This document shows, piece after piece, positions 1,262 to 50,337 of a stretch of 50,671 nucleotides of DNA. Source of the stretch: a virus (Duplodnaviria; Caudoviricetes); the IMG/VR virus record IMGVR_UViG_3300003885_000005, positions 1-50,671 of that record, one strand, 5' to 3'. A program made the translations under genes and the position numbers. Position 1 is the stretch's first letter, and every line of letters starts with the position of its first letter. Under the pieces are notes generated by a model that was not told the DNA's origin, searched no databases, and was given only the letters and a program-made list of their open reading frames with translations.

Positions 1262-1627
1262 ATGGGAACTTGGTTAATGCAAGATGCTGTATTACTGGTT
1301 GATGATATGGTAACTTCTAGTATATTTCTAACACATGTTACTGAGAAACATACTTTATCAGCATCATTAGTTGATGGTGATGCAAGTGTTAGTGCACTTT
1401 CAATAGACTTAGAAGCATCTGATGATGGAAGAGGTGTTACTGATGCTAATGCAAAGTGGTATAGCTTAAACACTCATGCCTTTGATGGTGGTGAGATAAC
1501 TGCTTTACGTGCTATGTGGCATGTTGTTAGTAAACCAGTTAAGAGGGTTAGAATGAAGGTTACTGCGTCTACTGGTGAGGGTGTAGGAGATCTTCTCACA
1601 ATGAGGTATACACAGGGGAGTCAGTAA
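1262..1627 (+). CDS. Putative small virion protein
   Basis: GGAGG RBS, tight operon packing, beta-sandwich-like sequence. Confidence 0.6.
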   Translation: MGTWLMQDAVLLVDDMVTSSIFLTHVTEKHTLSASLVDGDASVSALSIDLEASDDGRGVTDANAKWYSLNTHAFDGGEITALRAMWHVVSKPVKRVRMKVTASTGEGVGDLLTMRYTQGSQ

Positions 1628-2151
1628 TGTCTATAACATATAAAGATGTTAATAATGATACTGTTAGGGTTATTACTTTTAAAGAGGGTGTAAAAACAGT
1701 AATAGTAAAAGAGAATGTAATCGTAGTCGAACGCCCACGATATAAGGATACTGAGATTATAAGGCCCAAGATTATAGAGAAGGAAGTAGAAATAACCCAC
1801 GAGAAGCATACCTATAAAGATGTTGAACATGAGCGGCCGGTTCCTGTAGATAAGGAATATGAGCGGCCTGTCTTAGTAGAGAAGGAATATATCATTCCTA
1901 AATATGTAGATAAGGAGTTTGTTATTCCTATTTATAAGGAAAAGGAATTTATAATTCCTAAGTTTGTGGAGAAGGAAGTTACAAATGTAACTATCATAGA
2001 AAAAGTGGTTGAAGTAGAAGTTCCTAAATACGTAGAGGTTATAATTGAGAGACCTGTTTATAAGGATAGAGAAGTTATAAATCCTATATTTAGGGAAAAG
2101 TTAATAGTAATAGAAAAAGAAATCAAGCCTAAAGTTAAGGATAAGAGTTAA
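1627..2151 (+). CDS. V/E/K/I/P repeat protein (alveolin/IMCp-like composition)
   Basis: About 10-aa periodic repeats such as EKEYIIPKYV, DKEFVIPIYK and EKEFIIPKFV. Confidence 0.65.
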   Translation: MSITYKDVNNDTVRVITFKEGVKTVIVKENVIVVERPRYKDTEIIRPKIIEKEVEITHEKHTYKDVEHERPVPVDKEYERPVLVEKEYIIPKYVDKEFVIPIYKEKEFIIPKFVEKEVTNVTIIEKVVEVEVPKYVEVIIERPVYKDREVINPIFREKLIVIEKEIKPKVKDKS

Positions 2152-8074: not shown

Positions 8075-9118
8075 ATGATAGCTATAGTAGCTAATGAATC
8101 GACTGCAACACTAAGGAGAATTTACTTCTTTTGTGTAGATGCTACTGATGGTATAACGCCAGAACTTGGAGAGGCCGCAGGACAACCGCAGTTATCAGTT
8201 AGTGCTGGTGCATGGGCAAATTCCAGTAACACCCTTGTTGCTATTGGTAGTGGTCATTATTACCTAGAGCTTACGCAAACTGAAGTCAATATTGCAGTTC
8301 AGTCAGTAATCAGAACTAGGTACAAATCAGCTAATACGATTGAGACAGAAGGCTCGACGGCTCAGATCTTTAGTGCTACACCTACAGACTTTGCCTCTAC
8401 GGCATCTGGTGTTCTAGGTACACTAATAACTGATGTAAGGCGTGTGGTTAAAGATGTGAGTGGAGTTAACTCTGAGATTTTATGGGATGAGCTTGAGTGG
8501 ATTGAATACTTTGCTAGTGCAGAAAGAGAAATATGTGAAAGAGCTCATGTGTTAGAGGACTCAACCACAGCGGCTGTTGTTACTATAACTATGGTAGATG
8601 GGACAGCTTCATACTCATTACACCCAAAAATTTTGTATGTGGAGAAAGCTGTACCATCTTGGGGAACCGATAGCACACCGATACCGAAGAGGTCAGAAGA
8701 CTGGTTAGATGTTAATTATCTTGGATGGCGAGATCTAGATGACGGTAAGCCAGAATATATAGTTGAGAAACAGACACATAAGATAATCTGTGTTCCAGCG
8801 CCGAACTCTGACTATGCCGCTGAGACCCTATCACTGGTGGTAAAGAGACTTCCACTTGTTGACTTATCGTTGATTAATGTTACTCCAGAAATCGACTCTC
8901 GGTACTATGACGATATGAAACACTGGGCTCTCTACCGGGCGTTTTCTAAAAGAGATGCCGAGATATATGATGAGAATAAATCTACATTCTATTCTAAACA
9001 TTATTACAACTTGTTTGAGGCAAGAGTCGGACAGAGGCCAGATGCTAATACTCAGCGGATAATGAAACAAGAGCCGGCTACTGGTATACAGATAATACCT
9101 TATAGAAGGAGCACATAG
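8075..9118 (+). CDS. Head-to-tail adaptor-like protein with an extra N-terminal domain
   Basis: The C-terminal two-thirds has an adaptor pattern (W...E...YF..AEREICER; P.P; WALYRAFSKRDAE). Confidence 0.65.
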   Translation: MIAIVANESTATLRRIYFFCVDATDGITPELGEAAGQPQLSVSAGAWANSSNTLVAIGSGHYYLELTQTEVNIAVQSVIRTRYKSANTIETEGSTAQIFSATPTDFASTASGVLGTLITDVRRVVKDVSGVNSEILWDELEWIEYFASAEREICERAHVLEDSTTAAVVTITMVDGTASYSLHPKILYVEKAVPSWGTDSTPIPKRSEDWLDVNYLGWRDLDDGKPEYIVEKQTHKIICVPAPNSDYAAETLSLVVKRLPLVDLSLINVTPEIDSRYYDDMKHWALYRAFSKRDAEIYDENKSTFYSKHYYNLFEARVGQRPDANTQRIMKQEPATGIQIIPYRRST

Positions 9119-9143
9119 TATCGTTCATTGTGTGAACATAACT
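9117..9143. promoter_or_regulatory. 27-bp dyad, copy 1: AGTATC GTTCA TTGTG TGAAC ATAACT
   Basis: Matches the nine-copy genome-wide palindrome; intergenic. Confidence 0.85.
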
Positions 9144-9147: not shown

Positions 9148-10101
9148 ATGAATAAAATGGAAGTAGTAACATATAATAAGTTCTTAGGCGTCTACAGTAG
9201 TGGTGACTCTCAAGATATACCAAAGCCCGAAGGGGCTATAGCTCTTGTAACCGCTGATAATATGGATATTAATAAGTACTTTAAACTTAAATCTAGACCT
9301 GGTAGAACATTGAAGCTATCTGGAGATTATAAGAACCTTTGGTCCGACGGCTCAGTTATCTTTGCTACTATAGATAATGACTTATATAAGCTGGTTTTAA
9401 ACCAAGACTTGACTATGTCAGCAACTCTAATCCAACAGAATGTAGGTCCAGGAATAATGAACTATGCTAGCATAGGTGAGTTAGCTTATATGACTAATGA
9501 TACTAATATCTATGCCTACCAAGACAGCGCTATTAGAGCACTTAGAACCACAACCAATCAGTTCAGAAAAACTATGCCGCCGGGATACTTACTTGAATTA
9601 CACCGGAGTAGGATGTTTATAGCTAAGACCATCCAAACCTTTGATAGTGATTCTGCCTACAAACGTACCCAAGAAATCTTGATGCAGTCTGAAGCTGGTA
9701 ACTATGAGAGATATGATACTCGGGATGATAAATCCTGGCAGTCTTTTCCAACTAGACTAACCATGATAAAGTCAGTCGGAGACGGACTCTTTGTTTCAGC
9801 CGACAAGACGTATTTCTTAAAGGGGTCATTCTTAGGCCCGAATGGAATGACGCTGACTAAAGTTGATAATTCTTCAGCGATTTTTGGTACAGCTAAAAAA
9901 ATTCGTGGAGCTATGATAGCCGGCGAGTATTACGATAATGCAGTACTCTGGGAAACCGAACTTGGTATATGTGTAGGTGGTTCTGGTGGACGCTTTAAGT
10001 ATCTTACTGAAGGAAGGAAAGATAAATCCACTGCTAGCATTGGTGCTAGTTATATTAAACGTGGCGAAATAAATCAATATGTAGTTAATAAAAAAGGTTA
10101 A
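9148..10101 (+). CDS. Putative tail/nozzle-associated structural protein
   Basis: Follows the adaptor; A.N.DI...LK.RPG N-terminal motif; beta-rich. Confidence 0.6.
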   Translation: MNKMEVVTYNKFLGVYSSGDSQDIPKPEGAIALVTADNMDINKYFKLKSRPGRTLKLSGDYKNLWSDGSVIFATIDNDLYKLVLNQDLTMSATLIQQNVGPGIMNYASIGELAYMTNDTNIYAYQDSAIRALRTTTNQFRKTMPPGYLLELHRSRMFIAKTIQTFDSDSAYKRTQEILMQSEAGNYERYDTRDDKSWQSFPTRLTMIKSVGDGLFVSADKTYFLKGSFLGPNGMTLTKVDNSSAIFGTAKKIRGAMIAGEYYDNAVLWETELGICVGGSGGRFKYLTEGRKDKSTASIGASYIKRGEINQYVVNKKG

Positions 10102-15325: not shown

Positions 15326-16312
15326 ATGGCTACGTTGCAAGAGGAACTTAAAAGATTAAGAAAAGATAAAAAGTATAAAGGGCTATTCAAGAAAGGAGAT
15401 ATTACTGTTAGTGATCCTAATACTCCACCTCCAAGACCTGGACTTGCTATATCTGGTACGTCTGGTCACCGTAGACGTCCGGAGCAAATTGCGAGTTTGA
15501 AACGTAGAGAATTTAAACGTGGGATATCAGATGCTGGGGGTAAGAGATCTTACTTAGATCAGATAGCAGAGAAGTATCTTGGCGAAGATAGTAACCGAGG
15601 TATGTCTTGGCAAGAAAAAACCGGTATGCAGATTTATGATAGAGATAAACAAAGGAGATTTGATCTTAGGTCTGCTTTAAAAAAGGCTGATGAGTCTAAG
15701 TATGTTAAAGGTATCATGGCTCGTGTAACTCAAGCTGAGGCAATTGGTGGACAGATAACTGAAGAAAGAAAAGCCAAGCTTGGTTTAATGGGAGATATAA
15801 TAGGCGCTGAGGCAACTGGTGCAAGGACAGATGTTGCTGCGTCTAGTGATCTTGTTACACAGGAATATAGAAAAGCGCAGCTTGGAATAAGTTCAGCTGG
15901 TCAGAAGAGTCTAGAGCAATCTAGATTAGATACAGCTCAGTATCGTAAAGGAGTATTAGAACTTGGTGAGGCTACTAAGCCTAGTTCAGATGAGAACCAG
16001 TTAGCAACGTTAACAAGGCAAATGCAGAAGGACTTATCTGATGTTGCTCAGAGTGCTAAAGAGGCTCCAGCAGAGGAAACATATTGGGGCTTAGGTGGAC
16101 CAAATAAGGCTCAGGAACAAATTGATGCTATACGAAAATCCTATGCACCTGAGTTAAATAGAATCAAAGGTAATATGATCTTTAAAGACTTTAAGAAGAA
16201 TTTTGAGAAAAAGACTGGTAAGAAAATAACTAGGACACAATGGAACGCATATATAAAGACAGATAAAGGTAAGAAATATCTTAAAGAGCAAGGCTTGGAT
16301 ACAGGAGAATAA
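15326..16312 (+). CDS. Putative internal virion (ejection) protein
   Basis: Charged, helical sequence; precedes the giant protein. Confidence 0.55.
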   Translation: MATLQEELKRLRKDKKYKGLFKKGDITVSDPNTPPPRPGLAISGTSGHRRRPEQIASLKRREFKRGISDAGGKRSYLDQIAEKYLGEDSNRGMSWQEKTGMQIYDRDKQRRFDLRSALKKADESKYVKGIMARVTQAEAIGGQITEERKAKLGLMGDIIGAEATGARTDVAASSDLVTQEYRKAQLGISSAGQKSLEQSRLDTAQYRKGVLELGEATKPSSDENQLATLTRQMQKDLSDVAQSAKEAPAEETYWGLGGPNKAQEQIDAIRKSYAPELNRIKGNMIFKDFKKNFEKKTGKKITRTQWNAYIKTDKGKKYLKEQGLDTGE

Positions 16313-16315: not shown

Positions 16316-19300
16316 ATGGCAAATGACAACTATGCTGATATAACGAACTTTATTGAATCTGAAACTAGCGTTCATGAAATGAACAAAAGTAATAAAGATA
16401 AGTTTAGTGATATAAATGAGTTTTTAGGAATAGAAGCTGAGCCAACGTCTACAGAGATTCTTATTGACCCAGAAAAGCGTGGTAAGAGTTATGGTGTATC
16501 TGGAGAGTGGGAAGATGAAAGTGGTGTACCACCAGAAATACTTACTGGTTTAAAAGGGGAGAACCGAAAAAAGAAAGCTAACTTATATAAACAGGCGACT
16601 CCTGAACAAAGAGCACTATATTTTCCGCAAACAGCTGCAACTGCTAGAGTTGTGGCTAAAGGAATTAATGCTAGACTATATGGAGCTCCTAAAGCTATTT
16701 TTGGTGATATACCTCCGTTTCAAGAATCAGAGAGCACTGCTGAATCTATAGGAACAGTTGGTGCAGAATTCTATGGTTTTTTAAAGGGCCCCTTTGCGCT
16801 AGCCAAAAGCTTATTAGGAAAAACTTGGGCTGCTAGAGAGGGTAGTATTGCAGCTAATTATGCTAGAATGATTGGAAGAGGTGGTCTTGAGCTTGGAACT
16901 GCCGGTGGAATAAGTGAAGTAATTCCCGCAGTTAGTGAAGAAGGATTAACAAGAGAAGCAGGTACTAGAGTTAATGATGCATTTAAACAAAGTGCACTAT
17001 TTGGTATGATATTTCCTGCTGCCGGAGTTATACCAACTAAACCTTTAAGAGTAGTTATTGGTGCTGGCTTGACTGATTTAGTTAGAGGTAGAGGTGAGTT
17101 TACATATGATGATACTATTAGAGGTTTACAGGATGGTACCATTGACCAACAGGAATTAGTTGATAGAGGCTTTGGGTATCTTATGGATGTATATTTTTTA
17201 ACTAGAACTCCTTCAGTAAAGAAACAAATAGAATCTCTTATACCATTTAAAAGAGTAGACAAGTTGGCATCTATGATAGCTAATGATAAGATGCAACAGG
17301 GTAAATACCAAGAAGCTGTTGATATAGTTAATGAGAGGTTTGAAAAGATTAAGAATGATCCAGAAATAAAAGAGAAGATGTCTGAGTTAGTTGGTAAAGA
17401 GTTAGAGGAGATACAGAAACAACTTAAAACTGATAAAGGAAGACAGGCTATTATAGATAAAAAGATGCCTAAAGATTTAGGTGATACACTTAAACTAAAT
17501 GCTCAAGCTAGACAAGCTGAGATAGATAGAATATCAGCCGTTGCTACAATACCAATAGAAGAAGCTCCAAAGATAGCTAAAGCAATAAAGCCACCTGAAA
17601 CAACTATGCAGAAGATTGATAAAATGATAGATGAGATAAAAACATTAGGAGAAGATATTGGTTACAAGCCAGTCCTTAAACGTGATAAATTACAAATACC
17701 AGTAGGTGAAAAGAAACCAGCTGATACTAAATTAATTGAACAGGATAAAAGAGTTCAAGAAGTTTTATCTGAAATAGAAAAGCTCGAAGGTTTAAGAACC
17801 ACAGCCGAGAAAGCTACTGGTATGAACCTCAAGTCTATATATGATAAAGCAATAAATGAAGCTATAGATACTTTACCTGAAGGTGAGAAGATCGAACTAC
17901 AATCAGCTATAAGTAACTTTAGAAAGAAAGTATATGTTACAGGTATTGAGAAGTATTATGCTGAGAAAGCAGCCGAGAAGAAAGCTACAGAGGTTGAGGT
18001 AAAGGAAAAACAAACGGCAAAGGAAACGACCCCTGTAAAGGGAAAAGAAAGCCCGGCGCCAGCCAAGCGTACGATGGAAGAGTCCGTCGCTGCTGGGGAA
18101 ATTCCGGCGCCCGAATACAAAGGCAAAGAACGGAGAGAAGTACCAGAAGCTAGACAGACAGTTATAGATGGATATGTAAGAAAGGAGCTTGGGGTTAAAG
18201 GTCTTGGTGGAAAAAAGTTAGCGCCGCTGACCAAATCTGAAAAAGAAGTTCTGGCGTTATATGAAGCTAAGCATCCTGATTATGTTAAAAAGGTTAGAGA
18301 AGATATAAAGGGGCGTGAAGAACCATCTAAAAAGGCTGCTGAGGTTGATAAGAAAAAAGAGATTGATCGGGTTGCTAAAGAGCATGATGTTAAGTATGAG
18401 GGAATACAGGAAGGTGCTGAGGGTGAAAAGTTCTATACCTTTACAGATAAAGAGACGGGTTCTACTTTTATGGTAAGTAATTTATCTAAGGTTGAGCGTA
18501 GTGTAACTGATATGAGGAAGAAGTTTAAAGAAGCAGAGAAGGAACCTAAAGAAGAAGTCAAAGTGGAACCTGATGCTGAGCTCTCTAAGACAGAAGTCAG
18601 TATAAAAGAACTTGGTGAGCTTACTCCTACGCAACTGGTTGAGAGAGCTAAGAAGGTGGGGCTCGAGCAAACGGTATGGAGTAAAGCTCTTTCAAATCGT
18701 GAGTATGTAGAGAGGCAGATAGTGGGGAAGGAAGGGAAGCCGTTTGAGGAAATGGTGAAGGAACCAGAGATTAAAATTGAGCCTGAGATTAAACCTGGTT
18801 TAAGAACTAAGTTCCAAAAGATCCTTGCCCAAGATAAGCTAACCCAAGAAGATATTAAGTGGCTTAAAGAAAACAAGGAAGCTCTGGATTTAACTCCAGA
18901 GGAAACCCAAGCCATTAAAATGCGTATGGCTGGTAAGCTTGTTAAAAGAATTATATCAGAGGAGAAGTTTCAAAAGAACTCAGAGTCTATTAAAAAGTAT
19001 CTTAAAGGTTTGAAGGTATTTACTGGGGTTCCAGACCCAAAGATTATAAAGGCTATGTCTGAAAATGCTATTTATCATATTGAAAGAAAAGCTACAAGCT
19101 TTTATCAATGGTCTCAAAAGATGATTAAAGAGTTTGGCAATAAAATTAGACCTATTCTACACCAAGCTTGGACTAATGCCCAGAACCATATTAATAGTGC
19201 TCGGGGGTATGAAGCTTATAAAGGGCGTATAGTTGCCGGAGATAAATTTAGTAAGGTTTATATAGCAGATAGTGTAACTGAATCTCTTCAAAATGAATCT

Positions 19301-22172: not shown

Positions 22173-22822
22173 TATTCTATATCATCAAAGAGAACAGGAA
22201 TTACAAAGCGGAACCCCTCTAACATATCTCTTGCAAGTTCCCTCATTTGAGGATGAGCAGCTTTAGAGCATCTGAGAGTAAAAAAGTGGCGCCACTCACG
22301 AACATTACCAGTGATAATTATCTCGGTCTTGAGACTATTAGGTAGTACCGAACGAGCTTCCTGTGGAGATTGACCTAATTTTATTAGTCTTATATAGGCA
22401 TCTTCTGTTTCTTCCATGCTATAGATCCATGTTTTATATGCTTCACTCCACTTATCTGTATTATGTTCACTATAATCACCATAAAACCATAATGGGCGAA
22501 TGACAGTCAACTCGCTACCATATTTACCTAAAGTATAGTTACAGTACCTTGTTGACTCCTGTGCATAGGAGAATAGACGGTGACGCACTATTTCATGTGT
22601 CACCCCTCTATCGGTAATTACTCTCACGGGCGGCGGCACTGCATGTTCAATCATAGCATGATGCCCTGACTTAAGCATACGTCCAACAAATTCTTTAGCA
22701 GAATCACTTGTAATTTTATCCTCACTTTTATAACAAGTTCTTCCTGCTTTCTCAATTGTCTTAAGTAATAATTCTCCGTTACAATAATGTTCAAACTTCC
22801 AACTTTGATCTACAATTTTCAT
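22169..22822 (-). CDS. thyX: Flavin-dependent thymidylate synthase
   Basis: RGVTHEIVRHR..SYAQESTRY signature, plus EARSVLP and AHPQM. Confidence 0.96.
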   Translation of the reverse strand: MKIVDQSWKFEHYCNGELLLKTIEKAGRTCYKSEDKITSDSAKEFVGRMLKSGHHAMIEHAVPPPVRVITDRGVTHEIVRHRLFSYAQESTRYCNYTLGKYGSELTVIRPLWFYGDYSEHNTDKWSEAYKTWIYSMEETEDAYIRLIKLGQSPQEARSVLPNSLKTEIIITGNVREWRHFFTLRCSKAAHPQMRELARDMLEGFRFVIPVLFDDIEY

Positions 22823-23172
22823 GTCTTCCTCCTTGTGTGTTCTCCATCATCAATGGAGTTAAAGTGTTTTTTTGTATGGTTCCCTTCAACAAATTCAACT
22901 AAAGATATATTAGCTATATCGACTAAGTGTTCAAGATTACCGGTTTTAATATACTTTTCTACCCGGCGTTGGATAGAATCCATTCTATTATACTGTGGTT
23001 TATTAGGTGACCCAAGTTTGCCATAACGTAGTGAGCCCATAATTAGACGATTACGCATAAGCTGTTCGAACTCATCACACCATTCAGAGATACATAAAGC
23101 AGTATAGCTATCTGAATCTCGTTCATGAGCTGTATTAAGTAACCGTTGTCGTATATAATTAGTATTGTTCAT
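22819..23172 (-). CDS. Conserved phage protein, possibly an all-alpha NTP pyrophosphatase-like fold
   Basis: G..RYG and HLVDIAN...EF motifs; adjacent to thyX. The function is inferred. Confidence 0.45.
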   Translation of the reverse strand: MNNTNYIRQRLLNTAHERDSDSYTALCISEWCDEFEQLMRNRLIMGSLRYGKLGSPNKPQYNRMDSIQRRVEKYIKTGNLEHLVDIANISLVEFVEGNHTKKHFNSIDDGEHTRRKT

Positions 23173-23187
23173 TCAATGAACATAACT
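23161..23187. promoter_or_regulatory. 27-bp dyad, copy 3: AGTATT GTTCA TTCAA TGAAC ATAACT
   Basis: Matches the palindrome; spans a gene junction. Confidence 0.85.
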
Positions 23188-23506
23188 ATGATGTCATCCC
23201 TTTAAGATTCGGCACCACTAATAACCCGCTTATAGCATGTATATACTTCTTATACAAATCATCAGTTATTTTTAGTTCCGACATAAATGCTCCGCCACCT
23301 ATAAAGTAGATTTCTTTCTTAGTAGGTGCAAGATCAAATTGATTTTGGCCAACTGGAACCATAATAACTGTGTCTTTAAAAAGTATATAAGGTGGTCCCG
23401 GCTCATGTTTATCAGCAGTAGCCATTAATGACCCAATCCTCTTTATCTTCCCTATCATCATACTCTGACCATAAGTTATGTGTATGACATCGTCAATTTT
23501 TAACAT
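23186..23506 (-). CDS. Hypothetical protein
   Basis: GGAGG RBS; operon packing. Confidence 0.6.
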   Translation of the reverse strand: MLKIDDVIHITYGQSMMIGKIKRIGSLMATADKHEPGPPYILFKDTVIMVPVGQNQFDLAPTKKEIYFIGGGAFMSELKITDDLYKKYIHAISGLLVVPNLKGMTS

Positions 23507-28119: not shown

Positions 28120-30432
28120 TTACTCCAGATCCCTCCAGTTCTTACCACTTTTAGTATCACTAGGAATATAAAAAGTTCTTCCATGATACGTCAACTCATA
28201 CTTAAAAAGCTCATGTACCTTATCCACCACAAACTTCCTCATGCTTATTGGGTGTTGTATAAGCAATGAATCATGCACTTGCAACTTAACACTAATATCT
28301 TTATGTTTCTTACAAACTTCATTATAGAACCTAATAATGCCTTTATTAATAACAGTTCCAACAACCTCTTGCGGCTCGTAAGCAACACACTCTTTAACTA
28401 AATCCGGACCCAGACGGCCAAAGAAAATCCTCTTTCGGCCAGTAGCGGTTGTGTGTGTTTTGGTACGTTTTAGCTCATCATCTAATGTCTTGAATAACCT
28501 CTCCAGGTTTGGGTTCAAGTCATAGAACTTCCTCTGTAGTTGCTTAGCCTCGGCGGCTGGTATTCTAAGTTGCTTTTGTATCCCTATGAAAGAGCCACGT
28601 TTCTCAAGTGTGTGTCGGAGCTTCTTAGCTCTAAAATATTTAGACAGGGTATCTTTACCCTCTGCCTCACGTTTGAGTTTATCTTCTTTAACCTCATCTG
28701 GATTCATATTAAACACAAGACAGGCTGTATAAGTATGTATGTTTTTATCCATCTCAAATATTTTAATAGAAGCTTCATCACCAGACCAATACGCAACTAT
28801 CATAGACTCAGCGCCTTTAAGATCAGCCTCGGTGAACTCCATACCCTCATCTGGAACAAGTATATCTCTAATCTTTTTAGGTATATTTTGAGCGTTTGTT
28901 CCAAAACCAAATGTACTTGTAGATGAACTTAAGCGATAAGTCTCAGCGCCGGTAGGATTAATATTGAACATAAATCTGCCATTAATAGGATCAGTTAAGT
29001 CAACAAGCCAAGTTGATATAAGCTTTCTTTCGCTCCTTATATTAATAACCTCAGCAATCTCTGGTGATTGTATGCTGAGTTTCTCAAGAGCGTCGGCATT
29101 AGAAGTAGGTTTGCCTCCTTTCATTATAGGTTTTAACTTAAGTGTCCCATAAGCTAACTTCATCATCTGTTGTGGGGAGTGAGGGTTTACTCCATTGAAG
29201 GTCTTAGCAAACTTTTCTTCTCTTTGTTTAAGTGACTTTTTATAGTATTCAATGTGCTCATTAAGTCTCTTAACATCTACTCTTATTCCACTCATTTGCA
29301 TAAATAGAAGTGGTTCAAGCAACTCCATCATATAATCATAAGTGTGCCGAACACCAAGCTCATTTATTTCTTTTTCAAGTTCTTCATACACCTCATATGT
29401 TACAGCTGAGTCACGAGCAGAGTAGGTCCAGTTCTGCTCATCAGTTGAGGTGCCGGCTAACCATGTTTTTAGATCGTCTTTATAATAAGGCTCATTAGTA
29501 TATATCGAAGCAAGAAAATCTAAACCCTTTGGAAGCTCTGAATAACATGAGTGCTGTGCAATCATAGTATCATACCACGGCTTCTTAACAAGTACACCCC
29601 AGTTACGCATTATCCACTTAATATCGTGACTTATATTTTGACCTATCTTTAAGTCATCTCTGTTAAAGACTTTTTCCATTGCCTTCCAAATTATTCTTAA
29701 GTTTCCCCATGAACCCCAATACGATTTAGTTGTTGGTATGCTTATAGACTCATCTTTAGAAAATGCAAATGATATGCAGTGTATCCAATTTGGTTTATTC
29801 TCAATATCATAAGCGAAGTTGCCTCTGTTATCACCAAGAAAGTGCAAGACGTCATCCATGGTGGGTTCAATAATCAAGTTCCGTTTAGGCAGAATAACTT
29901 CTGGAAATTCACTTTCTTTAAGTATCTTCTTTAAATCAAATCTTTGAACGGGATTAAGCTTCCAACTATTATTTATAGCAGCTGGGTGATAGGTGCCTAT
30001 AACTTTAACTACATGACCATTGGGTAGAGTGGTTGATAAAATACTTCCACGCCATTTACCTATTTGTGTCTTACCGGTGAGAGCCCATAAGGGATTCGCA
30101 CCTAATGGAACAATTATATTAGTATCTAATTCATCGAGCTCTTTTAGTAGCTCATCTTTGAGTTTAAGAAGCTGTGCTGTTGGTTGTTTACCTTTCCAGA
30201 ACATTTTATTAAACATTTTAGGTGGAACAGCGAGCTTAGATATGTTGGTAAGATAACATTGCTGACGTGAGATGCCAGTCATATGCAGGTTGCTATTAAG
30301 GATTCGGCCAGAAGTCCCAACAAATGGTTGGAGGTTGGCTACTTCTTCGACCCAAGGAGCCTCACCAATGAAGGCTATCTTACACTTTTTGGGTCCTACA
30401 GGTGGAACGTAGATGGTGCCGAGGGCCATCAT
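28120..30432 (-). CDS. Family A DNA polymerase with N-terminal family-4 uracil-DNA-glycosylase-like and 3'-5' exonuclease domains (SPO1-type architecture)
   Basis: UDG motifs GEAP, PFVG.SG and TYHPAA; ExoI YDIE; polymerase motifs RLSS, QNIP, ADLKGAE and QVHDS. Confidence 0.92.
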   Translation of the reverse strand: MMALGTIYVPPVGPKKCKIAFIGEAPWVEEVANLQPFVGTSGRILNSNLHMTGISRQQCYLTNISKLAVPPKMFNKMFWKGKQPTAQLLKLKDELLKELDELDTNIIVPLGANPLWALTGKTQIGKWRGSILSTTLPNGHVVKVIGTYHPAAINNSWKLNPVQRFDLKKILKESEFPEVILPKRNLIIEPTMDDVLHFLGDNRGNFAYDIENKPNWIHCISFAFSKDESISIPTTKSYWGSWGNLRIIWKAMEKVFNRDDLKIGQNISHDIKWIMRNWGVLVKKPWYDTMIAQHSCYSELPKGLDFLASIYTNEPYYKDDLKTWLAGTSTDEQNWTYSARDSAVTYEVYEELEKEINELGVRHTYDYMMELLEPLLFMQMSGIRVDVKRLNEHIEYYKKSLKQREEKFAKTFNGVNPHSPQQMMKLAYGTLKLKPIMKGGKPTSNADALEKLSIQSPEIAEVINIRSERKLISTWLVDLTDPINGRFMFNINPTGAETYRLSSSTSTFGFGTNAQNIPKKIRDILVPDEGMEFTEADLKGAESMIVAYWSGDEASIKIFEMDKNIHTYTACLVFNMNPDEVKEDKLKREAEGKDTLSKYFRAKKLRHTLEKRGSFIGIQKQLRIPAAEAKQLQRKFYDLNPNLERLFKTLDDELKRTKTHTTATGRKRIFFGRLGPDLVKECVAYEPQEVVGTVINKGIIRFYNEVCKKHKDISVKLQVHDSLLIQHPISMRKFVVDKVHELFKYELTYHGRTFYIPSDTKSGKNWRDLE

Positions 30433-31769
30433 CCATCTCCTATCTTATCCAAGAGCCCTGCATCCTTAGCACTCAGAAAGTCCGCAATCCTAAGCAACGC
30501 TCTGTCATAGTTAACTTGGTCAAGTTCAAATCCAAGTGCCTTGCATCCACTCTTGATACCAGCAATAATCGTGGTAGCACTCCCAGCAAATGGATCTAAG
30601 ATAGTCTGACCTGGTAAGCAGAACCGACTAACTAGCTCTTCCATAAGTGGGAGCGGCTTCTCCACCACATGAACTTTCTCCGAGATCGAGACCCCAGGGA
30701 AAGGTAGTATGTTACTTTGACCTCTTTTAACCAGTGAGTAGTCACCTCTTGTGCCATAGAGGAAGGCTTCATAAGATCGAGCCATGTTCTTGGACGGTAC
30801 ACTAGTTTGGCCCGGGCCGCCTGTACGATGCCAAATACCAGGGATGGGGTCAACGGAGAAACCTATCTGAGTAAACCTGTCAGCCAACCAACCAAAGTTG
30901 CTTAAGCTGTTTGGCTTATGTTTGTGGTCACAGAAGAAAACAAAACAGGCATCCTTTGCCATAACCCGATCAAGTTTATTAATCAACGTATCTATCATTG
31001 TAAAGTACTCTGCCTCATCATCATCATAAGTACTATTATCTTGAGCGGCTTGAGAGTCAGATGAAACCTTCTTAATTTTCTTTAGGTCTATACCATAAGG
31101 TGGGTCGGTTATCAAGGCACTGATGGAGCCAGCGGGTAGGCTATCTATTAGCTCCAAACACGAGCCATTGAAGAGGTAATTCTGTGCTTTGGAACCATAA
31201 TTAGTCTTCTTCTTCCTAATCGCTAGCTCAGCATGAGTTTCATCCAACTTGTACTTCTGTAAGACTTTCAAAGCCGACTCTCGAGTCTTACACCTAACAA
31301 ACATTTCAGGATCAACCTTAAGGGCCTCAGCCAAACCCAAATCAGTGCTAATAGCCCCAGTAGACAGGCCAGTTTTCTTTGCAGCCATACGTAGGGGCAT
31401 TTTCTTATACTTAGCCTTTAACATATCCATCAAGTCGGTAGTAGCTGACACTTTCTCACGCCAGTCGAAGTCTTTGCGCTCGAGGTTCTCAGTTATCTCC
31501 CATATGCGGTGGTCTACTTCATCCAGAGTCGTGATGATGGCCCGAACGTGTACTTCTGCTTTCTTACAGGCGGCCGTTCGCCTCTCTCCGGCAACCAACG
31601 TATATCTACCGGGTACGTCGGCTGGAATTACGATTATAGGGATTATGTTTTTTCCTAATGTTTTGATACTTTCTGATAATGACTCTATATCACCAAGGTC
31701 TTTTCGGTATCGGTCAGAGTCTATTATAATATCGTCTGGGTTGAGTAGAGCAATGTTGTCAGTGGTCAT
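30429..31769 (-). CDS. ParB-like domain + HTH + N6/N4 DNA methyltransferase fusion
   Basis: LVAGERR and ENLERKD (ParB/Srx); AAKKTGLSTGAIS (HTH); TDPPYG, EKP and LDPFAGS (beta-class MTase). Confidence 0.88.
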   Translation of the reverse strand: MTTDNIALLNPDDIIIDSDRYRKDLGDIESLSESIKTLGKNIIPIIVIPADVPGRYTLVAGERRTAACKKAEVHVRAIITTLDEVDHRIWEITENLERKDFDWREKVSATTDLMDMLKAKYKKMPLRMAAKKTGLSTGAISTDLGLAEALKVDPEMFVRCKTRESALKVLQKYKLDETHAELAIRKKKTNYGSKAQNYLFNGSCLELIDSLPAGSISALITDPPYGIDLKKIKKVSSDSQAAQDNSTYDDDEAEYFTMIDTLINKLDRVMAKDACFVFFCDHKHKPNSLSNFGWLADRFTQIGFSVDPIPGIWHRTGGPGQTSVPSKNMARSYEAFLYGTRGDYSLVKRGQSNILPFPGVSISEKVHVVEKPLPLMEELVSRFCLPGQTILDPFAGSATTIIAGIKSGCKALGFELDQVNYDRALLRIADFLSAKDAGLLDKIGDG

Positions 31770-32008
31770 TTATCCTCCTTCATTTTAGCCAGCAATTTAG
31801 CCAACTGTTCTTTAGACAACCCCTTTACTAAATCATTAAGCTGACGCTCAGCATTGGATACTATCTTTGGTTTCTTTGTAGAGCTGGTTCTTTTTGCTAC
31901 GATTTTTAGCTTACTCAACAAGTGAGCTTGTTTCTCCAACTCTTCATCTGTACATTCGCTGGCGGGTTTATCAATTAGATCTTTTAGTTCCATCAATCCT
32001 CCTCCCAT
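31766..32008 (-). CDS. Hypothetical protein (start probably MELK)
   Basis: GGAGG RBS before the second Met. Confidence 0.6.
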   Translation of the reverse strand: MGGGLMELKDLIDKPASECTDEELEKQAHLLSKLKIVAKRTSSTKKPKIVSNAERQLNDLVKGLSKEQLAKLLAKMKEDK

Positions 32009-32178
32009 TTCTCTGCAACTTTCTTTCCAGCCTCATCAACCTTACCATATTTTAGAAACGCCCTGTAAAGGCATCTTGTCAAGATAGATATCTGTCCAGT
32101 CTCGGTACAACTTCTCAAGAGTTGCTCATGTAGCTCAGGTGCTATCTCTACATGGATTTGTTTCTTTGGTTTAGACAT
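31993..32178 (-). CDS. Ribbon-helix-helix-like regulator
   Basis: KQIHVEI..ELHEQL...C...GQIS pattern. Confidence 0.5.
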   Translation of the reverse strand: MSKPKKQIHVEIAPELHEQLLRSCTETGQISILTRCLYRAFLKYGKVDEAGKKVAEKWEED

Positions 32179-32832: not shown

Positions 32833-32859
32833 ACTACCGTTCATTGAATGAACACAAGT
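32833..32859. promoter_or_regulatory. 27-bp dyad, copy 4: ACTACC GTTCA TTGAA TGAAC ACAAGT
   Basis: Intergenic, between the SSB gene and the tRNA-like RNA. Confidence 0.85.
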
Positions 32860-32863: not shown

Positions 32864-33208
32864 TTAGACGGCCCAAACCTTATTCACAACATTCTGGATA
32901 CCATACTCCGGAGTCTCTTTCGTCCCGATCCTTACATTGATCTGGGCTCCTACCGCAATCTGCGGGTCAAACCCAGTTTCATCATATGCAGACTTCGCAG
33001 CATCCATCATAGCTTTGATCCTAGATGGAATCTTTGAGTTGGTGTTATGGAACAGGGTTCTTCCAGTTGTCAGTGCCAACAGCCAGTTAAAGTTTGTACT
33101 TTGTCCATCTTTTGATGTTTTGGGTTCCACGCTCTTAATCGTTACTACATAGTCCCCATCAGCTATTACATCATCTGCTTTGGTTAAATCTATTTCAAGC
33201 TTAGGCAT
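32864..33208 (-). CDS. Putative single-stranded DNA-binding protein (DUF669-like)
   Basis: I.DGDYVVTI..VE.KTSK.G OB-fold pattern; close to the Sak4-like ATPase. Confidence 0.65.
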   Translation of the reverse strand: MPKLEIDLTKADDVIADGDYVVTIKSVEPKTSKDGQSTNFNWLLALTTGRTLFHNTNSKIPSRIKAMMDAAKSAYDETGFDPQIAVGAQINVRIGTKETPEYGIQNVVNKVWAV

Positions 33209-38916: not shown

Positions 38917-39402
38917 TTAGTTACGTTCATGAAATGAACAATACTTGTCAACCACCATCATAGGATAATAAGTATGCTCATCTTCATATCGTTCAATCTT
39001 TGGTATGCTTACTGGGATATCTTTCTTCTTGCTAAGGATAATATCTATTAACTGTGTTTGTGGCAGAGTCATAAGATACTGTCTACACTTTGAACAACTA
39101 TTCACTTTACAATTTCCTTTTCCTGATGTGTAGAATGGGCTGAGTGTTACCCATTCTTTCTTACAAATTGCTGTGGAGTGGTGCTCCTTGACATGACCAC
39201 AAAGTAAGCATGTAGTATTATACACAATAAAGTAATCACCTTTTTTTGCTTTGGGTCCTCTTGGTATGCCTTGCTTCTTTGATGCTTGTGGTAATAGATT
39301 TTTTAGCTCCTCGCCACTTAGATTGTACAACTTCTTGATTTGCTGGTCGTCAAAGCCCATTGATTTTAGGGCCTTGGCATCTTCAGGACTACAGTAGGAC
39401 AT
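38917..39402 (-). CDS. Cys-rich hypothetical protein
   Basis: CLLCG and CSKC; AGGAGG RBS. Confidence 0.6.
   Translation of the reverse strand: MSYCSPEDAKALKSMGFDDQQIKKLYNLSGEELKNLLPQASKKQGIPRGPKAKKGDYFIVYNTTCLLCGHVKEHHSTAICKKEWVTLSPFYTSGKGNCKVNSCSKCRQYLMTLPQTQLIDIILSKKKDIPVSIPKIERYEDEHTYYPMMVVDKYCSFHERN
38919..38945. promoter_or_regulatory. 27-bp dyad, copy 5: AGTTAC GTTCA TGAAA TGAAC AATACT
   Basis: Overlaps the last codons of 38917..39402. Confidence 0.85.
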
Positions 39403-39587
39403 TTTTGGCTCCTTTGGCTAAAAGGTTAATAGTTAACTAGCTAAACTATAAATTGTTATAGTCACTACTATCATCAATACTGCTAATATAAGCACATTTA
39501 TTGTTAATTCTTCAAGAAAGTTTAATATTCTCATAAACATATCCTTTTGTTTAGGTTATCAAAAGTGTATAATTTCATCAATGACTG

Positions 39588-39617
39588 ATTATAACATATT
39601 TTGATGTCAAATGTCAA
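39588..39617 (-). promoter_or_regulatory. Sigma70-type promoter TTGACA-N18-TATAAT with extended TG
   Basis: Minus strand reads TTGACA tttgacatcaaaatatgt TATAAT. Confidence 0.7.
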
Positions 39618-39658
39618 TAAAATAATCACCCTATCATAAACATAATAACAGCATTGAT

Positions 39659-40042
39659 TTATTTACCAAGTTTACCTATCATATCCTTGATACGCTTTTC
39701 ACCTGTTTGCTTAGCTTCTTTCTTCAACTCCTTAAACACACGCTCAAGGTCTGGGTCTCCAATGTTTGCTTTTGGTTCCAGCGCGCTTAGTGGCAATAGT
39801 TTAAACACCTCCAACATATCAGCCACTAGATGCTTTGAACCCTTCTTACCATACATCTCTATACTCCATATAATAAGCGTGGTATTCATAACCGCCGAGG
39901 TATAAGACTCTTTCAAGCCTTGTCGTCTAAGCTCATTGTTGATATGGTTCCTGAGCAACCAAGATTCATCATAGCTACTCATGATTACCTTGACCGCACC
40001 GACTCTGATTAGTTCATCTATTACTATGTTATGGTCAATCAC
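39659..40042 (-). CDS. Hypothetical protein
   Basis: GTG start, contiguous with the upstream ORF. Confidence 0.6.
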   Translation of the reverse strand: MIDHNIVIDELIRVGAVKVIMSSYDESWLLRNHINNELRRQGLKESYTSAVMNTTLIIWSIEMYGKKGSKHLVADMLEVFKLLPLSALEPKANIGDPDLERVFKELKKEAKQTGEKRIKDMIGKLGK

Positions 40043-40528: not shown

Positions 40529-40542
40529 TGTTCATACTTCCC

Positions 40543-40571: not shown

Positions 40572-40899
40572 ACACGTGATAATAATAATAATAATCTTCC
40601 TGGATATGGTCTCTATCCATACATGTGTGTTACATGTTCTACATGACATATATTGTCACATGTAGCCCTCCCCCCCCCTTTATTTAAAAAAAAAAAATAT
40701 AAGTATAAGGGGTAGGAGAAGGACATGTAACATGAACAAGTATCGTTCATTCAATGAACGGAAGTATACATGAGACACCAGTAGCGAGTACATGCCATAT
40801 AACTATACATGACATGACATGTAGTTATACATGTGTGTCATTGATGGATATGGAGCATATGTTCAAAGATTATTATTATTATTACCTGGGTTTTGACAA
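40565..40899. other. Origin-like locus: 56-bp imperfect inverted arms enclosing 12 ACATG repeats, poly-C/poly-A tracts and a dyad copy
   Basis: Arms at 40565..40620 and 40844..40899 share TTGTCAAA-N7-(TAA)5TCTT...ATATG...TATCCAT; non-coding. Confidence 0.6.
40739..40765. promoter_or_regulatory. 27-bp dyad, copy 6: AGTATC GTTCA TTCAA TGAAC GGAAGT
   Basis: Near the centre of the origin-like locus. Confidence 0.85.
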
Positions 40900-41298: not shown

Positions 41299-41306
41299 GG
41301 GGGTTG

Positions 41307-42176: not shown

Positions 42177-42191
42177 ATGAGCAGAGGGATT

Positions 42192-42797
42192 ATGGGACTA
42201 ATACCACAGACATTGAGTAGAAGCGTTGAGAGATATGGGTTAGGGTATATTAGGCCAAGGCATGAGGAGATAGCTCGAAGGCTGGTTTGTGGGCAGAACC
42301 AATCAGATATAGCCCGGCACATGGGTATTAATATAGGTCGGTTGAGTATCATAGTTAATTCACCGTTGTTTAAGGTGGTGCTGGCAAGGCTGTCGAAGCT
42401 CAGGGATGACTCCGCGACTGATATACAGGAGGAGATTAAAGCACTCGCGCCGATCGCGCTGGAGCAAGTCGCTTCCACAATTATGACCAGTACAAGTGAG
42501 AAGCTCAGGTTGTCAGCATCACAGGATCTGTTAGATAGAGCAGGGTTAGCTAAGAAGGGTAATGTTGGGGTGCAGATAAATATAGGAGCAGGGCATCCCG
42601 TTGATTTGGAGAAGTATAAAGGTGACGCTGTAACGGTAGAGGTTAAAGCTGAACCATCCAGTGATAATGGTGGCAACGGCGCCAATGGAGAGAGTGCTGT
42701 TCAGTCTGTGAACACAAGCGAAGAGGACACAGCAGAGGATATGAAGCTTTTGGAGGATATTATCGGCTTAGAAGAATCTGAAGAGGATAATAAATGA
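42192..42797 (+). CDS. terS: Putative terminase small subunit (HTH)
   Basis: HTH QSDIARHMGI; RLSASQDLLDRAG motif; upstream of terL; ATG after AGAGGG. Confidence 0.65.
   Translation: MGLIPQTLSRSVERYGLGYIRPRHEEIARRLVCGQNQSDIARHMGINIGRLSIIVNSPLFKVVLARLSKLRDDSATDIQEEIKALAPIALEQVASTIMTSTSEKLRLSASQDLLDRAGLAKKGNVGVQINIGAGHPVDLEKYKGDAVTVEVKAEPSSDNGGNGANGESAVQSVNTSEEDTAEDMKLLEDIIGLEESEEDNK
42693..42719. promoter_or_regulatory. 27-bp dyad, copy 7: AGTGCT GTTCA GTCTG TGAAC ACAAGC
   Basis: Inside the low-complexity C-terminal tail of terS; one flank mismatch. Confidence 0.75.
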
Positions 42798-46753: not shown

Positions 46754-46958
46754 AGAATTTACTATTGATGGAGAGATGGTTACAGAATGGCTTGACTTTG
46801 CAACAACAAAAGCTTTTATAGCTAAATTAGACCAGATAGAAATTGAAAAGCTTAAATCTATCGTAGTTAATGATAATAAAGAAGAAGCTTGCGGTATCGT
46901 CAAGGGTATTATCCTTGTTAAATCACTTATAGAGAGTGCGAAGGAGGAAGGTTTATGA
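46746..46958 (+). CDS. Hypothetical head-morphogenesis-region protein
   Basis: Between the portal and GroES genes; GGAGG RBS. Confidence 0.6.
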   Translation: MPKEFTIDGEMVTEWLDFATTKAFIAKLDQIEIEKLKSIVVNDNKEEACGIVKGIILVKSLIESAKEEGL

Positions 46959-47266
46959 GCGTTGTAGAAATGATTGATGTAGATATTGAGAAGGAAATAA
47001 AGGAGTTTCCTTTAGTACCATATACACAGAGGGTCTATATAATAGAAGATGAGGTATTTAAATCTCATGGTCTATATATTCCAGATTCTTCTCGTAAAGA
47101 AGGCGAAATGCAAACTAATATAGGTACTGTGGTAGCTGTGGCTGATGATATTGGCTTTGTAAAGCCCGGCGATAGGGTTCTGTATGCCCGTTATTCTGGT
47201 TCATGGGTTCTCGATCAAAAATACCGAGTCATGAACGAAGAGGATATTCTTGGGAGATATAAATGA
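46955..47266 (+). CDS. groES: Co-chaperonin GroES (Cpn10)-like
   Basis: P...RV, GLYIPD, GTVVAV, VKPGDRVLY..YSG and MNEEDILG motifs. Confidence 0.88.
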   Translation: MSVVEMIDVDIEKEIKEFPLVPYTQRVYIIEDEVFKSHGLYIPDSSRKEGEMQTNIGTVVAVADDIGFVKPGDRVLYARYSGSWVLDQKYRVMNEEDILGRYK

Positions 47267-47292
47267 GTAGCGTTCATTATATGAACAATACT
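47266..47292. promoter_or_regulatory. 27-bp dyad, copy 8: AGTAGC GTTCA TTATA TGAAC AATACT
   Basis: Begins at the groES stop codon. Confidence 0.85.
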
Positions 47293-49269: not shown

Positions 49270-50163
49270 ATGCCACTTTATTCAAGTAACATGCCGGAGC
49301 TTCTGGAGCCAGGAATAAGAATCGTCTATGGTGATTCTTACAATGACTACCCAGAAGAATATACAGAAGCATTTGAGGTAGATACCTCTACAAAAGCTAC
49401 TGAGAAGGACTTCAGTGTGAGTGGATTTGGACTTGCTCAGCAGAAGGGTGAAGGTCAAGATGTGTACTTTGATGAGATGTATAAGGGGTTTTCAACTACC
49501 TACACTCACCTTGAATATGCTCTTGGGTTTGCTGTAACAAGGATAATGTACGAAGATGATCTGTACCGTCAGATTAAATCTCGTCCACAGGCCTTGGCAA
49601 GAAGTGTCAGACACACTGTTGAGATCTTGTCTGCGAATATCTTAAACAATGCTTTCACATCCGGACTCGGTGGTGATGGAGTTGTTCTTTGCTCTGCTAG
49701 CCATCCGATCAAAACTGGGACACTCAGCAATCTAATGAGTCCTACAGCTACTTTCTCTGTTACATCTTTTGAGCAGGCTTTAATTGATATTCAAGGATGG
49801 ACAGATGATAGAGGGTTGAAAATCAGGGTGCTTCCAAAGAAACTGATTGTAAGTCCTAGTGATGCATTTCAGGCTCAGATTGTCCTTAAATCTGCGAAGA
49901 TGCCAGGTACTGCTGACAATGACGTTAACCCAGCGATGAACTATCTTCCTAATGGTTATACTGTCATGCACTTTCTCACCGACACAGATGCTTGGTTCCT
50001 TAAAACAGACCAGCCCAATGGTTTGATGTTCTTCTGGAGACGTAGACCAGAATTCACCAGAGATAATGACTTTAAGTCAGATAACGCTCTGTTTAAAACT
50101 ACCCTTAGATGTTCACAGGGTTGGACGGACTGGCGAGGACTGTACGGATCTGCTGGGGCCTGA
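49270..50163 (+). CDS. Major capsid protein (Mu gpT-like family)
   Basis: LEPG, GFG.A..KGEG, YALGF.VT...EDDLY, GGDGV.L...HP and LTDTDAWFL motifs. Confidence 0.88.
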   Translation: MPLYSSNMPELLEPGIRIVYGDSYNDYPEEYTEAFEVDTSTKATEKDFSVSGFGLAQQKGEGQDVYFDEMYKGFSTTYTHLEYALGFAVTRIMYEDDLYRQIKSRPQALARSVRHTVEILSANILNNAFTSGLGGDGVVLCSASHPIKTGTLSNLMSPTATFSVTSFEQALIDIQGWTDDRGLKIRVLPKKLIVSPSDAFQAQIVLKSAKMPGTADNDVNPAMNYLPNGYTVMHFLTDTDAWFLKTDQPNGLMFFWRRRPEFTRDNDFKSDNALFKTTLRCSQGWTDWRGLYGSAGA

Positions 50164-50310: not shown

Positions 50311-50337
50311 AGTAATGTTCACGAAATGAACACAACT
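50311..50337. promoter_or_regulatory. 27-bp dyad, copy 9: AGTAAT GTTCA CGAAA TGAAC ACAACT
   Basis: Intergenic, downstream of the MCP gene. Confidence 0.85.

Follow-up and report, generated by a model that had tools for sequence, protein, structure and literature searches.

How is a DNA-modifying enzyme brought to the chromosome of the phage that encodes it, and which protein reads the palindromes that recur along that chromosome? These questions arise for the IMG/VR virus record IMGVR_UViG_3300003885_000005 (Caudoviricetes), a complete viral record of 50,671 nt that we analyzed at its full length and call the window. The same 91 nt stand at both of its ends, which leaves a unit genome of 50,580 bp. 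It encodes a ParB module fused to a DNA methyltransferase (MTase), here called the ParB-MTase, and carries nine dispersed copies of a dyad. A preliminary description, made from the letters alone, had proposed that the fusion protein loads at these dyads and slides along the phage chromosome, methylating it in cis. All components of that proposal proved to be real, and the dyads turned out to be a family trait; the covariation that might have tied them to the protein, however, was matched by a negative control on the neighboring DNA polymerase, PolA. A coupling between the dyads and the ParB-MTase is plausible, and two other proteins of the same gene cassette are serious rivals as readers of the dyads.

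Sequence comparisons confirm that the open reading frame (ORF) 30429-31769 holds a canonical ParB module fused to a putative beta-class N6/N4 DNA MTase, as had been read from its GERR and ENLER motifs, its helix-turn-helix (HTH) and its complete set of amino-MTase motifs. GERR lies at residues 61-64 and ENLER at 94-98, followed by DPPY at 222-225 and DPFAGS at 392-397; because DPPY precedes the FxGxG-type motif, the order is that of the beta class. Pfam places ParB_N (PF02195) at residues 24-96 (E 9.7e-8) and N6_N4_Mtase (PF01555) at residues 218-418 (E 4.6e-20, profile positions 3-213 of 221). With the NCBIfam model TIGR00180 (parB_part) the protein reaches 69.1 bits, above the cut-off of 58.45; the match spans residues 9-182 (model positions 8-181 of 186) and so takes in the HTH DNA-binding domain along with the N-domain. 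A profile built from 37 homologs matches solved chains of CTP-binding ParB and Noc proteins (4umk, E 4e-23; 7ng0 over profile positions 1-173, that is, through the HTH; also 7bnk, 6sdk and 6t1f/7bm8) as well as beta-class MTases (M1.HpyAVI 5hek, E 8e-34; CcrM 6pbd). The Box II GERR and Box III ENLER residues align with the equivalent boxes of 4umk, 6t1f/7bm8 and 7bnk, and R20, R22, G61, R63, R64, A67, E91, N95 and R98 are invariant in the 37 homologs. The AlphaFold2 (AF2) model, with a predicted local distance difference test score (pLDDT) of 82.4, leads Foldseek to the same ParB and MTase matches, the MTase side comprising CcrM 6pbd (E 2e-14), TTHA0409, MboIIA, RsrI and M1.HpyAVI. Its HTH region has helices at residues 126-133 and 137-152, with a putative recognition helix at about 134-150.

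The C-terminal dimerization domain of ParB is not present in this protein, whose residues 196-446 form the MTase domain. A homodimer was nevertheless predicted with a score of 0.72, the best of three controls reaching 0.00. In a benchmark this mark was reached by 20 of 30 proteins solved as a pair of identical chains and by 1 of 23 proteins solved as a lone chain, counts that apply to the ParB-MTase only approximately since its prediction used a custom alignment. The runs concur in at least 96% of contacts, with a partner pLDDT of at least 74, and the interface that they predict (residues 282-354 and 382) is confined to the MTase domain; solved beta-class MTase dimers exist, so the prediction may reflect memory. 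A dimer of MTase domains could stand in for the missing C-terminal gate of a ParB ring.

The fusion is widespread. A homolog search returned 306 proteins at E ≤ 1e-10, among them closer homologs of 61-86% identity, and nearly all of the 120 homologs listed have both precomputed Pfam domains, many of them on contigs of 40-55 kb. A single-protein scan of IMG/VR and a scan of GTDB genomes, both for close relatives of the ParB-MTase, returned none. Through alignment of PolA we gathered 80 related IMG/VR loci, in 78 of which a full-length ParB-MTase directly precedes PolA; for the remaining two, the DNA upstream is absent or cut off. One complete relative (G001) has a ParB-MTase 44% identical to that of the window. 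The cassette of the window is translationally coupled and runs from a ribbon-helix-helix (RHH)-like protein through an 80-aa protein and the ParB-MTase to a polymerase with a uracil-DNA glycosylase (UDG) domain, UDG-PolA. On gene order and start-stop overlap, the ParB-MTase is a core gene of a large family of phages of ∼40-55 kb, predicted to be co-expressed with the replicative UDG-PolA.

The dyads are equally clear. GTTCA-N5-TGAAC occurs in nine exact copies in the window, against 0.02 expected, and 0 of 100 shuffles reached nine. The largest interval between neighbors on the 50,580-bp circle is 9,672 bp, in keeping with the earlier statement that nine dyads lie no more than 10 kb apart. Eight of the nine belong to a 27-bp composite, A(G/C)T-N3-GTTCA-N5-TGAAC-N3-A(C/G)T, and the dyad at 42699, inside the small terminase subunit gene terS, consists of the core with its outer arms missing. 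The half-site is not enriched (63 GTTCA monomers observed, 63.5 expected). Seven of the nine centers fall between ORFs or within 30 nt of an ORF end, positions that make up 13.9% of the genome (p 2.8e-5), and together the dyads divide the window genome into functional modules. Canonical parS is absent from the window genome, where three matches at three mismatches compare with 1.68 expected. A search of the complete 50.7-kb genome for two ParA-type families (PF13614 and PF01656) gave no match, with positive controls found in 14 of 14 genomes, which agrees with the preliminary description. Its statement that the genome lacks an integrase stands for the tyrosine type, PF00589 not having been found; serine recombinases were not searched for.

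The exact dyad of the window is private to it, and its relatives have versions of their own. An IMG/VR scan with the extended dyad returned 67 contigs with one site each, which is the chance level; four of the sites are palindromic and were matched on both strands. Of the 80 loci, 21 have at least three dispersed exact 6-mer dyads; among the 44 that measure at least 15 kb, the number is 20. A control of one shuffle per locus gave a maximum of 2. The aligned dyad contexts yield a family consensus, CTnTGTTCAA-N3-TTGAACAnAG, a palindrome of 23-27 bp whose inner arms are lineage-specific (for example GTTAAA, GTCCCA, TGTCCA, GTCAAT, GTAAGA, GGTATA, GTGAAA and TTCGAT). One locus, L320, has the dyad of the window, GTTCAT-N3-ATGAAC. 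G001 lacks the dyad of the window and carries six copies of ATG-N3-TTTCA-N5-TGAAA-N3-CAT in the same 27-bp geometry, the Desulfofustis phage L168 has six copies of GTCCCA-N3-TGGGAC, and the complete 44-kb genome G002 (the whole contig of L273) has 15 exact copies and one one-mismatch copy of GTTAAA-N3-TTTAAC, against 1 in its control. Dyads also stand upstream of the cassette in relatives, at positions comparable to that of dyad 32839. Judged from these alignments, the window dyads are this phage's version of a family-wide palindrome of 23-27 bp at gene-module boundaries.

Several repeats were seen alongside the family dyads. Six of the 16 G002 dyads lie within 4 kb near one genome end (39509-43428), which may be a control region, and the others are 1.9-6.7 kb apart. 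The complete relative L238 (MW202489.1), which has a ParB-MTase but neither an RHH-like gene nor an adjacent 80-aa gene, carries a six-copy GC-rich intergenic repeat built around GGTTTAC-N6-GTAAACC at gene junctions (462, 7750, 10258, 18870, 36633 and 38781). L242 (BK063670.1, vir526) is a relative without a ParB-MTase, in which about ten dispersed copies of the non-palindromic ACCCCCCCGTCAGAC and its complement replace the dyads. An unrelated contig from the dyad scan (L188, 5741-5868) contains four copies of TGTTCA-N5-TGAACA in 130 nt at a spacing of ∼22 nt, which looks like an iteron- or centromere-like cluster.

The ParB HTH is the single most likely reader of the dyads on these comparisons, and we hold tentatively, as a possibility that falls somewhat short of likely, that the ParB-MTase does read them. 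It is present in every dyad-bearing lineage, among them G002, where 16 dyads occur with no RHH-like homolog. In its TGTT...AACA arms and its 17-bp span, the consensus is similar to parS, whose 16-bp motif we take to be TGTTNCACGTGNAACA. In partial Mantel tests that compared similarity of dyad position weight matrices with similarity of protein windows, controlling for PolA or the whole protein, the HTH helix at residues 133-147 gave the only peak within the ParB half (partial r 0.26-0.29, p ∼0.03). This covariation follows the inner arms (0.27), not the outer arms (−0.02).

A number of observations weigh against this reading. Windows of PolA, the negative control, match the HTH peak: 13 of 253 reach a partial r of at least 0.24, with a maximum of 0.46. 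The 80-aa protein covaries with the dyads at 0.23-0.30, and MTase regions within residues 286-327 do so at 0.27-0.50. The same dyad is found with different HTH helices (the window and L320; L254 and L262/L265), and similar helices are found with different dyads (L168 and L266). In 59 of the 80 loci there are fewer than three exact dyad copies, a shortfall that may reflect limited detection. Among complete genomes, L169, L238 and L240 encode a ParB-MTase but have no family-type dyads, and L237 has only an N6-spaced dyad, which was classed as a different type by judgment. Overall, family-type dyads occur in 4 of 8 ParB-MTase-positive and 0 of 2 negative complete genomes, a difference that is not significant. 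The dyads lie tight at gene junctions; in relatives the right arm enters the Shine-Dalgarno sequence, and the RHH-like gene often begins 15-30 nt past a dyad, a placement expected of an autoregulated operator. Most members of the family alignment have GGRR in Box II, not GERR. The Box II glutamate is retained in the clade of the window (the window, G001 and L247), in L253 and in the distant L237 (GETR), and the difference may be relevant to nucleotide hydrolysis.

Published data add two further points on the same side. In a 2025 survey of ParB-fold proteins, 50 proteins were tested and 11 of the 28 that were purified bound a nucleoside triphosphate (NTP); the N6N4-MTase fusions are not named among those 11 in the part of the article available, which also states that nucleotide specificity was not reliably predicted by sequence analysis or AlphaFold3 (PMC12704722). 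M.phiCh1-I (Natrialba virus PhiCh1 ORF94), which has been studied by experiment, is a full-length distant relative of the ParB-MTase (23% identity, E 4e-20), with an N6_N4_Mtase domain, a ParB_N match below cut-off and degenerate boxes (GEHR, no ENLxR). According to the accessible portion of PMC6210493, it methylates GATC, of which only 5-50% become modified, and can replace dam in E. coli by complementation; it therefore has no need of a phage-specific loading site.

The strongest rival reading, itself somewhat unlikely, makes the dyads operators of the 61-aa RHH-like protein, in a phage regulon of module boundaries combined with autoregulation of the cassette. The ParB-MTase would then be an independent protective, replication-coupled MTase whose ParB module binds DNA elsewhere or non-specifically. 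The RHH-like family, with the motif (R/K)PRLS(I/V)E(I/V)S...LIPWG..., has members in 67 of 88 genomes or loci (a count that includes the 18 seeds) and in many loci lies between the dyad and the ParB-MTase; in L254, L265, L275 and L276 the dyad precedes its start codon by 15-30 nt. The AF2 model of the protein has an extended N-terminus and two helices (14-23 and 29-44). The inner arms, pseudo-palindromes (TG-TT-CA) with centers 11 bp apart, would suit an RHH dimer of dimers of the kind known from Arc, a further point against the ParB HTH. Before G002 was added, complete genomes had dyads in three of three RHH-positive and none of six RHH-negative cases. However, G002 has its 16 dyads with no RHH-like homolog, the positive controls of that search having been found, and the association between RHH-like gene and dyads vanishes once locus length is controlled (19 of 41 vs. 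1 of 3 among loci of at least 15 kb). The predicted DNA-facing beta-strand RLSVEIS is near-invariant despite the differing inner arms (partial r −0.14 to 0.06). The assignment is itself weak: hidden Markov model comparisons match 2 of 22 members to ParD (E 0.032) and give TTHA0139 with an E of 0.042, a literature search on TTHA0139 gave no result, and the window's member has no Pfam family and no Foldseek match to its model.

A reader other than the ParB HTH or the RHH-like protein is unlikely in our estimate, whether the 80-aa protein, an unrecognized phage ORFan or a host protein. A host factor is improbable because the inner arms vary by lineage. As reader, the 80-aa protein might work by itself or might, in the manner of KorA, pass DNA on to the ParB-MTase as its partner. 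Its family, with members in 70 of 88 genomes or loci, shows the best phyletic match to the dyads: all 20 dyad-bearing lineages have it. A strong match lies directly upstream of the ParB-MTase in all four dyad-bearing complete genomes, and the six dyad-less complete genomes have no adjacent match and two weak matches elsewhere. It covaries with the dyads as strongly as the HTH helix does, and its gene overlaps that of the ParB-MTase. Against this, the protein has no recognizable DNA-binding family or fold, and its phyletic match is confounded by clade, since the genomes with dyads are more closely related among themselves. A Pfam scan of 30 small window ORFs brought up no other DNA-binding family.

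That the dyads act instead as nucleic-acid structures, with no dedicated binder of double-stranded DNA, we regard as very unlikely. They would be RNA hairpins involved in termination, processing or translational control, or hairpins of single-stranded DNA. Such structures would fit the positions of dyads 9123, 23167, 32839 and 47272, which sit 4-10 nt past stop codons, and the presence of dyads behind genes of high expression, the major head gene among them. Stems of up to 11 bp occur in relatives, with the right arm overlapping the Shine-Dalgarno sequence, and in the window the outer arms switch jointly from G-C to C-G at dyads 16370 and 32839. However, the RNA folds of the dyads are weak and not clearly better than those of shuffles (−4.9 to −8.3 kcal/mol, z −2.5 to +0.3), and non-Watson-Crick dyad positions on the sense strand are A.C more often than G.U (43 vs. 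20), the opposite of what selection for RNA pairing would give. Most dyads lack a T-tract, and the half-site is not enriched. In addition, the stretch that would form the loop is often palindromic too, and distant lineages keep the core sequence, which structure alone would not require. For these reasons, the sequence pattern favors a site on double-stranded DNA that a co-evolving phage protein recognizes. Two narrower candidates were rejected. As intrinsic terminators, eight of nine dyads have no T-tract, the terminator scan accepts only 40745, and terminators are no more numerous than chance would give; and no sigma-70 promoters were found at the dyads. By far the least probable reading is that the dyads are packaging-related, recognized by TerS or serving as pac: dyad 42699 lies in the 3′ part of terS, and the comparable G001 copy at 36064 lies at the 3′ end of an unannotated 198-aa ORF directly upstream of a 551-aa ORF (terS by position only), but the remaining eight window dyads are scattered over the genome, outer arms are lacking in the terS copies, and we know of no arrangement in which multiple pac sites are spread over a genome.

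Returning to the ParB HTH as reader, the dyad element would be read by a protein of its own conserved cassette, and the ParB-MTase would act as a KorB/Noc-like multi-site ParB that delivers its MTase to phage DNA. The HTH would dock on a dyad, cytidine triphosphate (CTP) would close the N-terminal gate, and the MTase dimer would provide a second gate. The closed ring would then slide, methylating the flanking phage DNA during replication. This full model of sliding and cis-selective methylation is, taken as a whole, unlikely to hold. Still less probable is an 'epigenetic partition-like' cassette, in which the 23-27 bp site would be read jointly by a small protein (the 80-aa or the RHH-like one, acting like KorA) and the ParB HTH. 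Such joint reading would load the CTP-gated ring with its MTase-dimer second gate, and the ring would slide between sites ∼2-10 kb apart and methylate newly replicated phage DNA in cis, marking it as self.

Table 1. Positions in the window of the fusion gene and its domains, the neighboring genes and the nine dyads
Feature	Position	Strand	Remarks
ParB-MTase fusion gene	30429..31769	−	446 aa; Pfam ParB_N + N6_N4_Mtase; TIGR00180; PHROG 67/498 (DNA MTase) and 4715/6218 (ParB-like)
Canonical ParB N-domain and ParB-type HTH, residues 9-182	31224..31745	−	TIGR00180; alignments to 4umk, 7bm8/6t1f, 7bnk and Noc
Putative beta-class N6A/N4C MTase domain, residues 218-418	30516..31118	−	PF01555; PDB profile and Foldseek matches
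UDG-exonuclease-PolA DNA polymerase	28120..30432	−	PF03167, PF01612, PF00476; start codon overlaps ParB-MTase stop (ATGA)
80-aa lysine-rich protein	31766..32008	−	Stop overlaps ParB-MTase start (ATGA); conserved partner
61-aa RHH-like protein	31993..32178	−	Candidate rival DNA binder; family motif
114-aa conserved protein	32864..33208	−	Possibly DUF669/SSB-like; stop 10 nt before dyad 32839
Dyad 1	9123..9137		Fills 29-nt gap between ORFs 8075..9118 and 9148..10101
Dyad 2	16370..16384		57 nt past stop of 15326..16312; 5′ end of 1886-aa ORF
Dyad 3	23167..23181		4 nt past stop of 23186..23506(−); overlaps ATG of 22819..23172(−)
Dyad 4	32839..32853		Head of cassette; 1.07 kb upstream of ParB-MTase start
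Dyad 5	38925..38939		Overlaps final codons of 38917..39402(−)
Dyad 6	40745..40759		Divergent early/late control region
Dyad 7	42699..42713		Core only; inside 3′ part of terS
Dyad 8	47272..47286		5 nt past stop of 46955..47266
Dyad 9	50317..50331		154 nt past stop of major head protein gene 49270..50163

Across the family, the genes upstream of the ParB-MTase follow a common order: a protein of 114-130 aa, often a dyad, the small RHH-like protein and the 80-aa protein. The 114-aa protein of the window has homologs upstream of the cassette in 58 loci and no Pfam or PHROG match; its possible label of DUF669 (domain of unknown function 669) or single-strand binding protein (SSB)-like is borrowed, as to DUF669, from a similarly placed gene of L242. 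More broadly, PHROG searches outline a minus-strand early and replication block from ∼41 kb down to 22 kb (exonuclease, ATP-dependent ligase, Sak4-like protein, ParB-MTase, PolA, primase and thymidylate synthase) and a plus-strand packaging and structural block with TerS (42150-42797), TerL, portal and major head protein (49270-50163). Most genes have a strong Shine-Dalgarno sequence (37 of 45 checked). A hydrothermal-vent metagenome, as assembled contigs, was the only sequencing run found with DNA of the window.

Two perfect sigma-70-type promoters (TTGACA, 17 or 18 nt, TATAAT, with an upstream TG) lie at 40543-40571 (−) and 39588-39617 (−); both point toward the early minus-strand genes and neither overlaps a dyad, dyad 40745 being ∼175 nt upstream of the former. 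The same dyad is flanked by a 61-nt inverted repeat in the divergent control region (40565-40625 and 40839-40899, 75% complementary, arms 213 nt apart), and a GC-rich hairpin, GCGCCGCGCTTGGCGC, lies at 47293-47311, directly downstream of dyad 47272. A 30-nt periodic repeat at 1735-2100 (+), within ORF 1627..2151 and with five copies of 69-100% identity to the reference copy, looks like a repetitive segment of a structural protein. In the window genome GATC is strongly depleted (82 observed vs. 172 expected under a Markov model), and GAATTC (3 vs. 8.4) and CTAG (93 vs. 166) are under-represented as well, which suggests avoidance of restriction.

The structural module ends in a giant 1886-aa ORF (16316-21976, +), and L168, L169, L237 and G001 have a giant ORF at the equivalent position. 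PHROG gives it a DNA-methyltransferase-like segment at residues 983-1135 and DarB-like antirestriction and lysin-like segments at 1243-1341; Pfam gives no match. It is probably an injected multi-domain protein and, by its PHROG segment, a putative second methyltransferase candidate of this phage. Its size had suggested a virion RNA polymerase using N4-like hairpin promoters, an idea that we rejected: the dyads stand in early and late modules alike, and the ORF shows only the segments just named.

Few ParB-fold architectures are commoner in phages than the ParB-CTPase/MTase fusions, and the available text of the 2025 survey gives them no function, DNA site or nucleotide. That text reports ParB-CTPase-fold/N6_N4 MTase fusions as enriched in phages, leaves their function open ('perhaps in anti-defense') and, in a figure legend, takes a TIGR00180 hit to define 'canonical domain organization' (PMC12704722). 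The earlier remark that such fusions are seen in phages is thus borne out, and our literature search, like that remark, found no defined loading site for a ParB-MTase. The window and at least 20 related lineages supply a sequence element, a four-gene cassette and three named candidate readers. If the ParB module loads the enzyme at the dyads, they would show how a virus confines a DNA-modifying enzyme to its own chromosome, and CTP-switch clamps would extend from segregation and gene silencing to enzyme delivery. Joint reading, if true, would give the first defined loading site and mechanism for these abundant phage fusions. If the small proteins read the dyads, the family would have a phage regulon with a known operator, and the ParB module would need another explanation.

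It is useful to set the window against the systems that it resembles. It shares with the CTP clamps ParB/Spo0J and Noc the GERR and ENLER N-domain followed by a ParB-type HTH, a TIGR00180 score above cut-off, matches in sequence and fold (4umk, 7bm8, 7bnk, 6sdk and Noc), and palindromic candidate sites with TGTT...AACA arms. By contrast, the window protein has no C-terminal dimerization domain, its MTase being predicted to dimerize instead; its genome lacks the ParA families and canonical parS; CTP binding is putative; and its candidate site is 1 bp longer than parS, with extra outer arms. KorB of plasmid RK2, a CTP clamp of the ParB family, works with KorA and has about a dozen palindromic operators at dispersed positions. 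Likewise, the window has one ParB-family protein and many dispersed palindromes at operon boundaries in a replicon of ∼50 kb, and its small co-encoded proteins could act in the manner of KorA. KorB, however, has no enzyme domain, dyad binding by the phage protein is putative, and the RHH-like and 80-aa proteins are not homologous to KorA as far as compared. Part of what we say of KorB comes from the accessible text of PMC13229309, which cites McLean et al. 2025.

Closest in architecture are the surveyed phage fusions, which share PF02195 and PF01555 with the window; the available part of the survey defines no DNA sites, and the window family adds a conserved operon and candidate sites (PMC12704722). 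Another variation on dimerization is HerB, described in the part of a preprint at hand as a ParB-like CTP-binding protein with a new dimerization domain (PMC13370423). The B. cereus ParB-methylase likewise joins a ParB domain to an adenine methylase, but it is a cellular gene, cited for non-specific nicking that resides in the ParB domain, with no site or CTP data cited in the passage available (PMC5512222). M.phiCh1-I is, like the window protein, encoded by a virus and has an N6_N4_Mtase domain; it is an adenine MTase that modifies the DNA of its virus, and its ParB boxes are degenerate, whereas those of the window are canonical. M.EcoGIX and M.BceJIII are PolI-associated, single-strand-specific plasmid MTases that act on single-stranded DNA at a degenerate SAY motif. 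They resemble the window in tying a protective MTase to a family-A DNA polymerase, the window gene being translationally coupled to PolA, but the portion of the source available describes no ParB module for them (PMC7736820). Finally, a phage thymine dioxygenase (5mYOX) needs a ParB-like activator on double-stranded DNA, according to the accessible part of a 2026 report (PMC13229309). There, as may be the case in the window, a ParB-like protein serves a post-replicative DNA-modifying enzyme on double-stranded phage DNA. Those activators are separate proteins that have no evident DNA-binding domain and in which NTP-pocket mutations had no effect, whereas in the window the ParB module and its HTH are fused to the enzyme itself.

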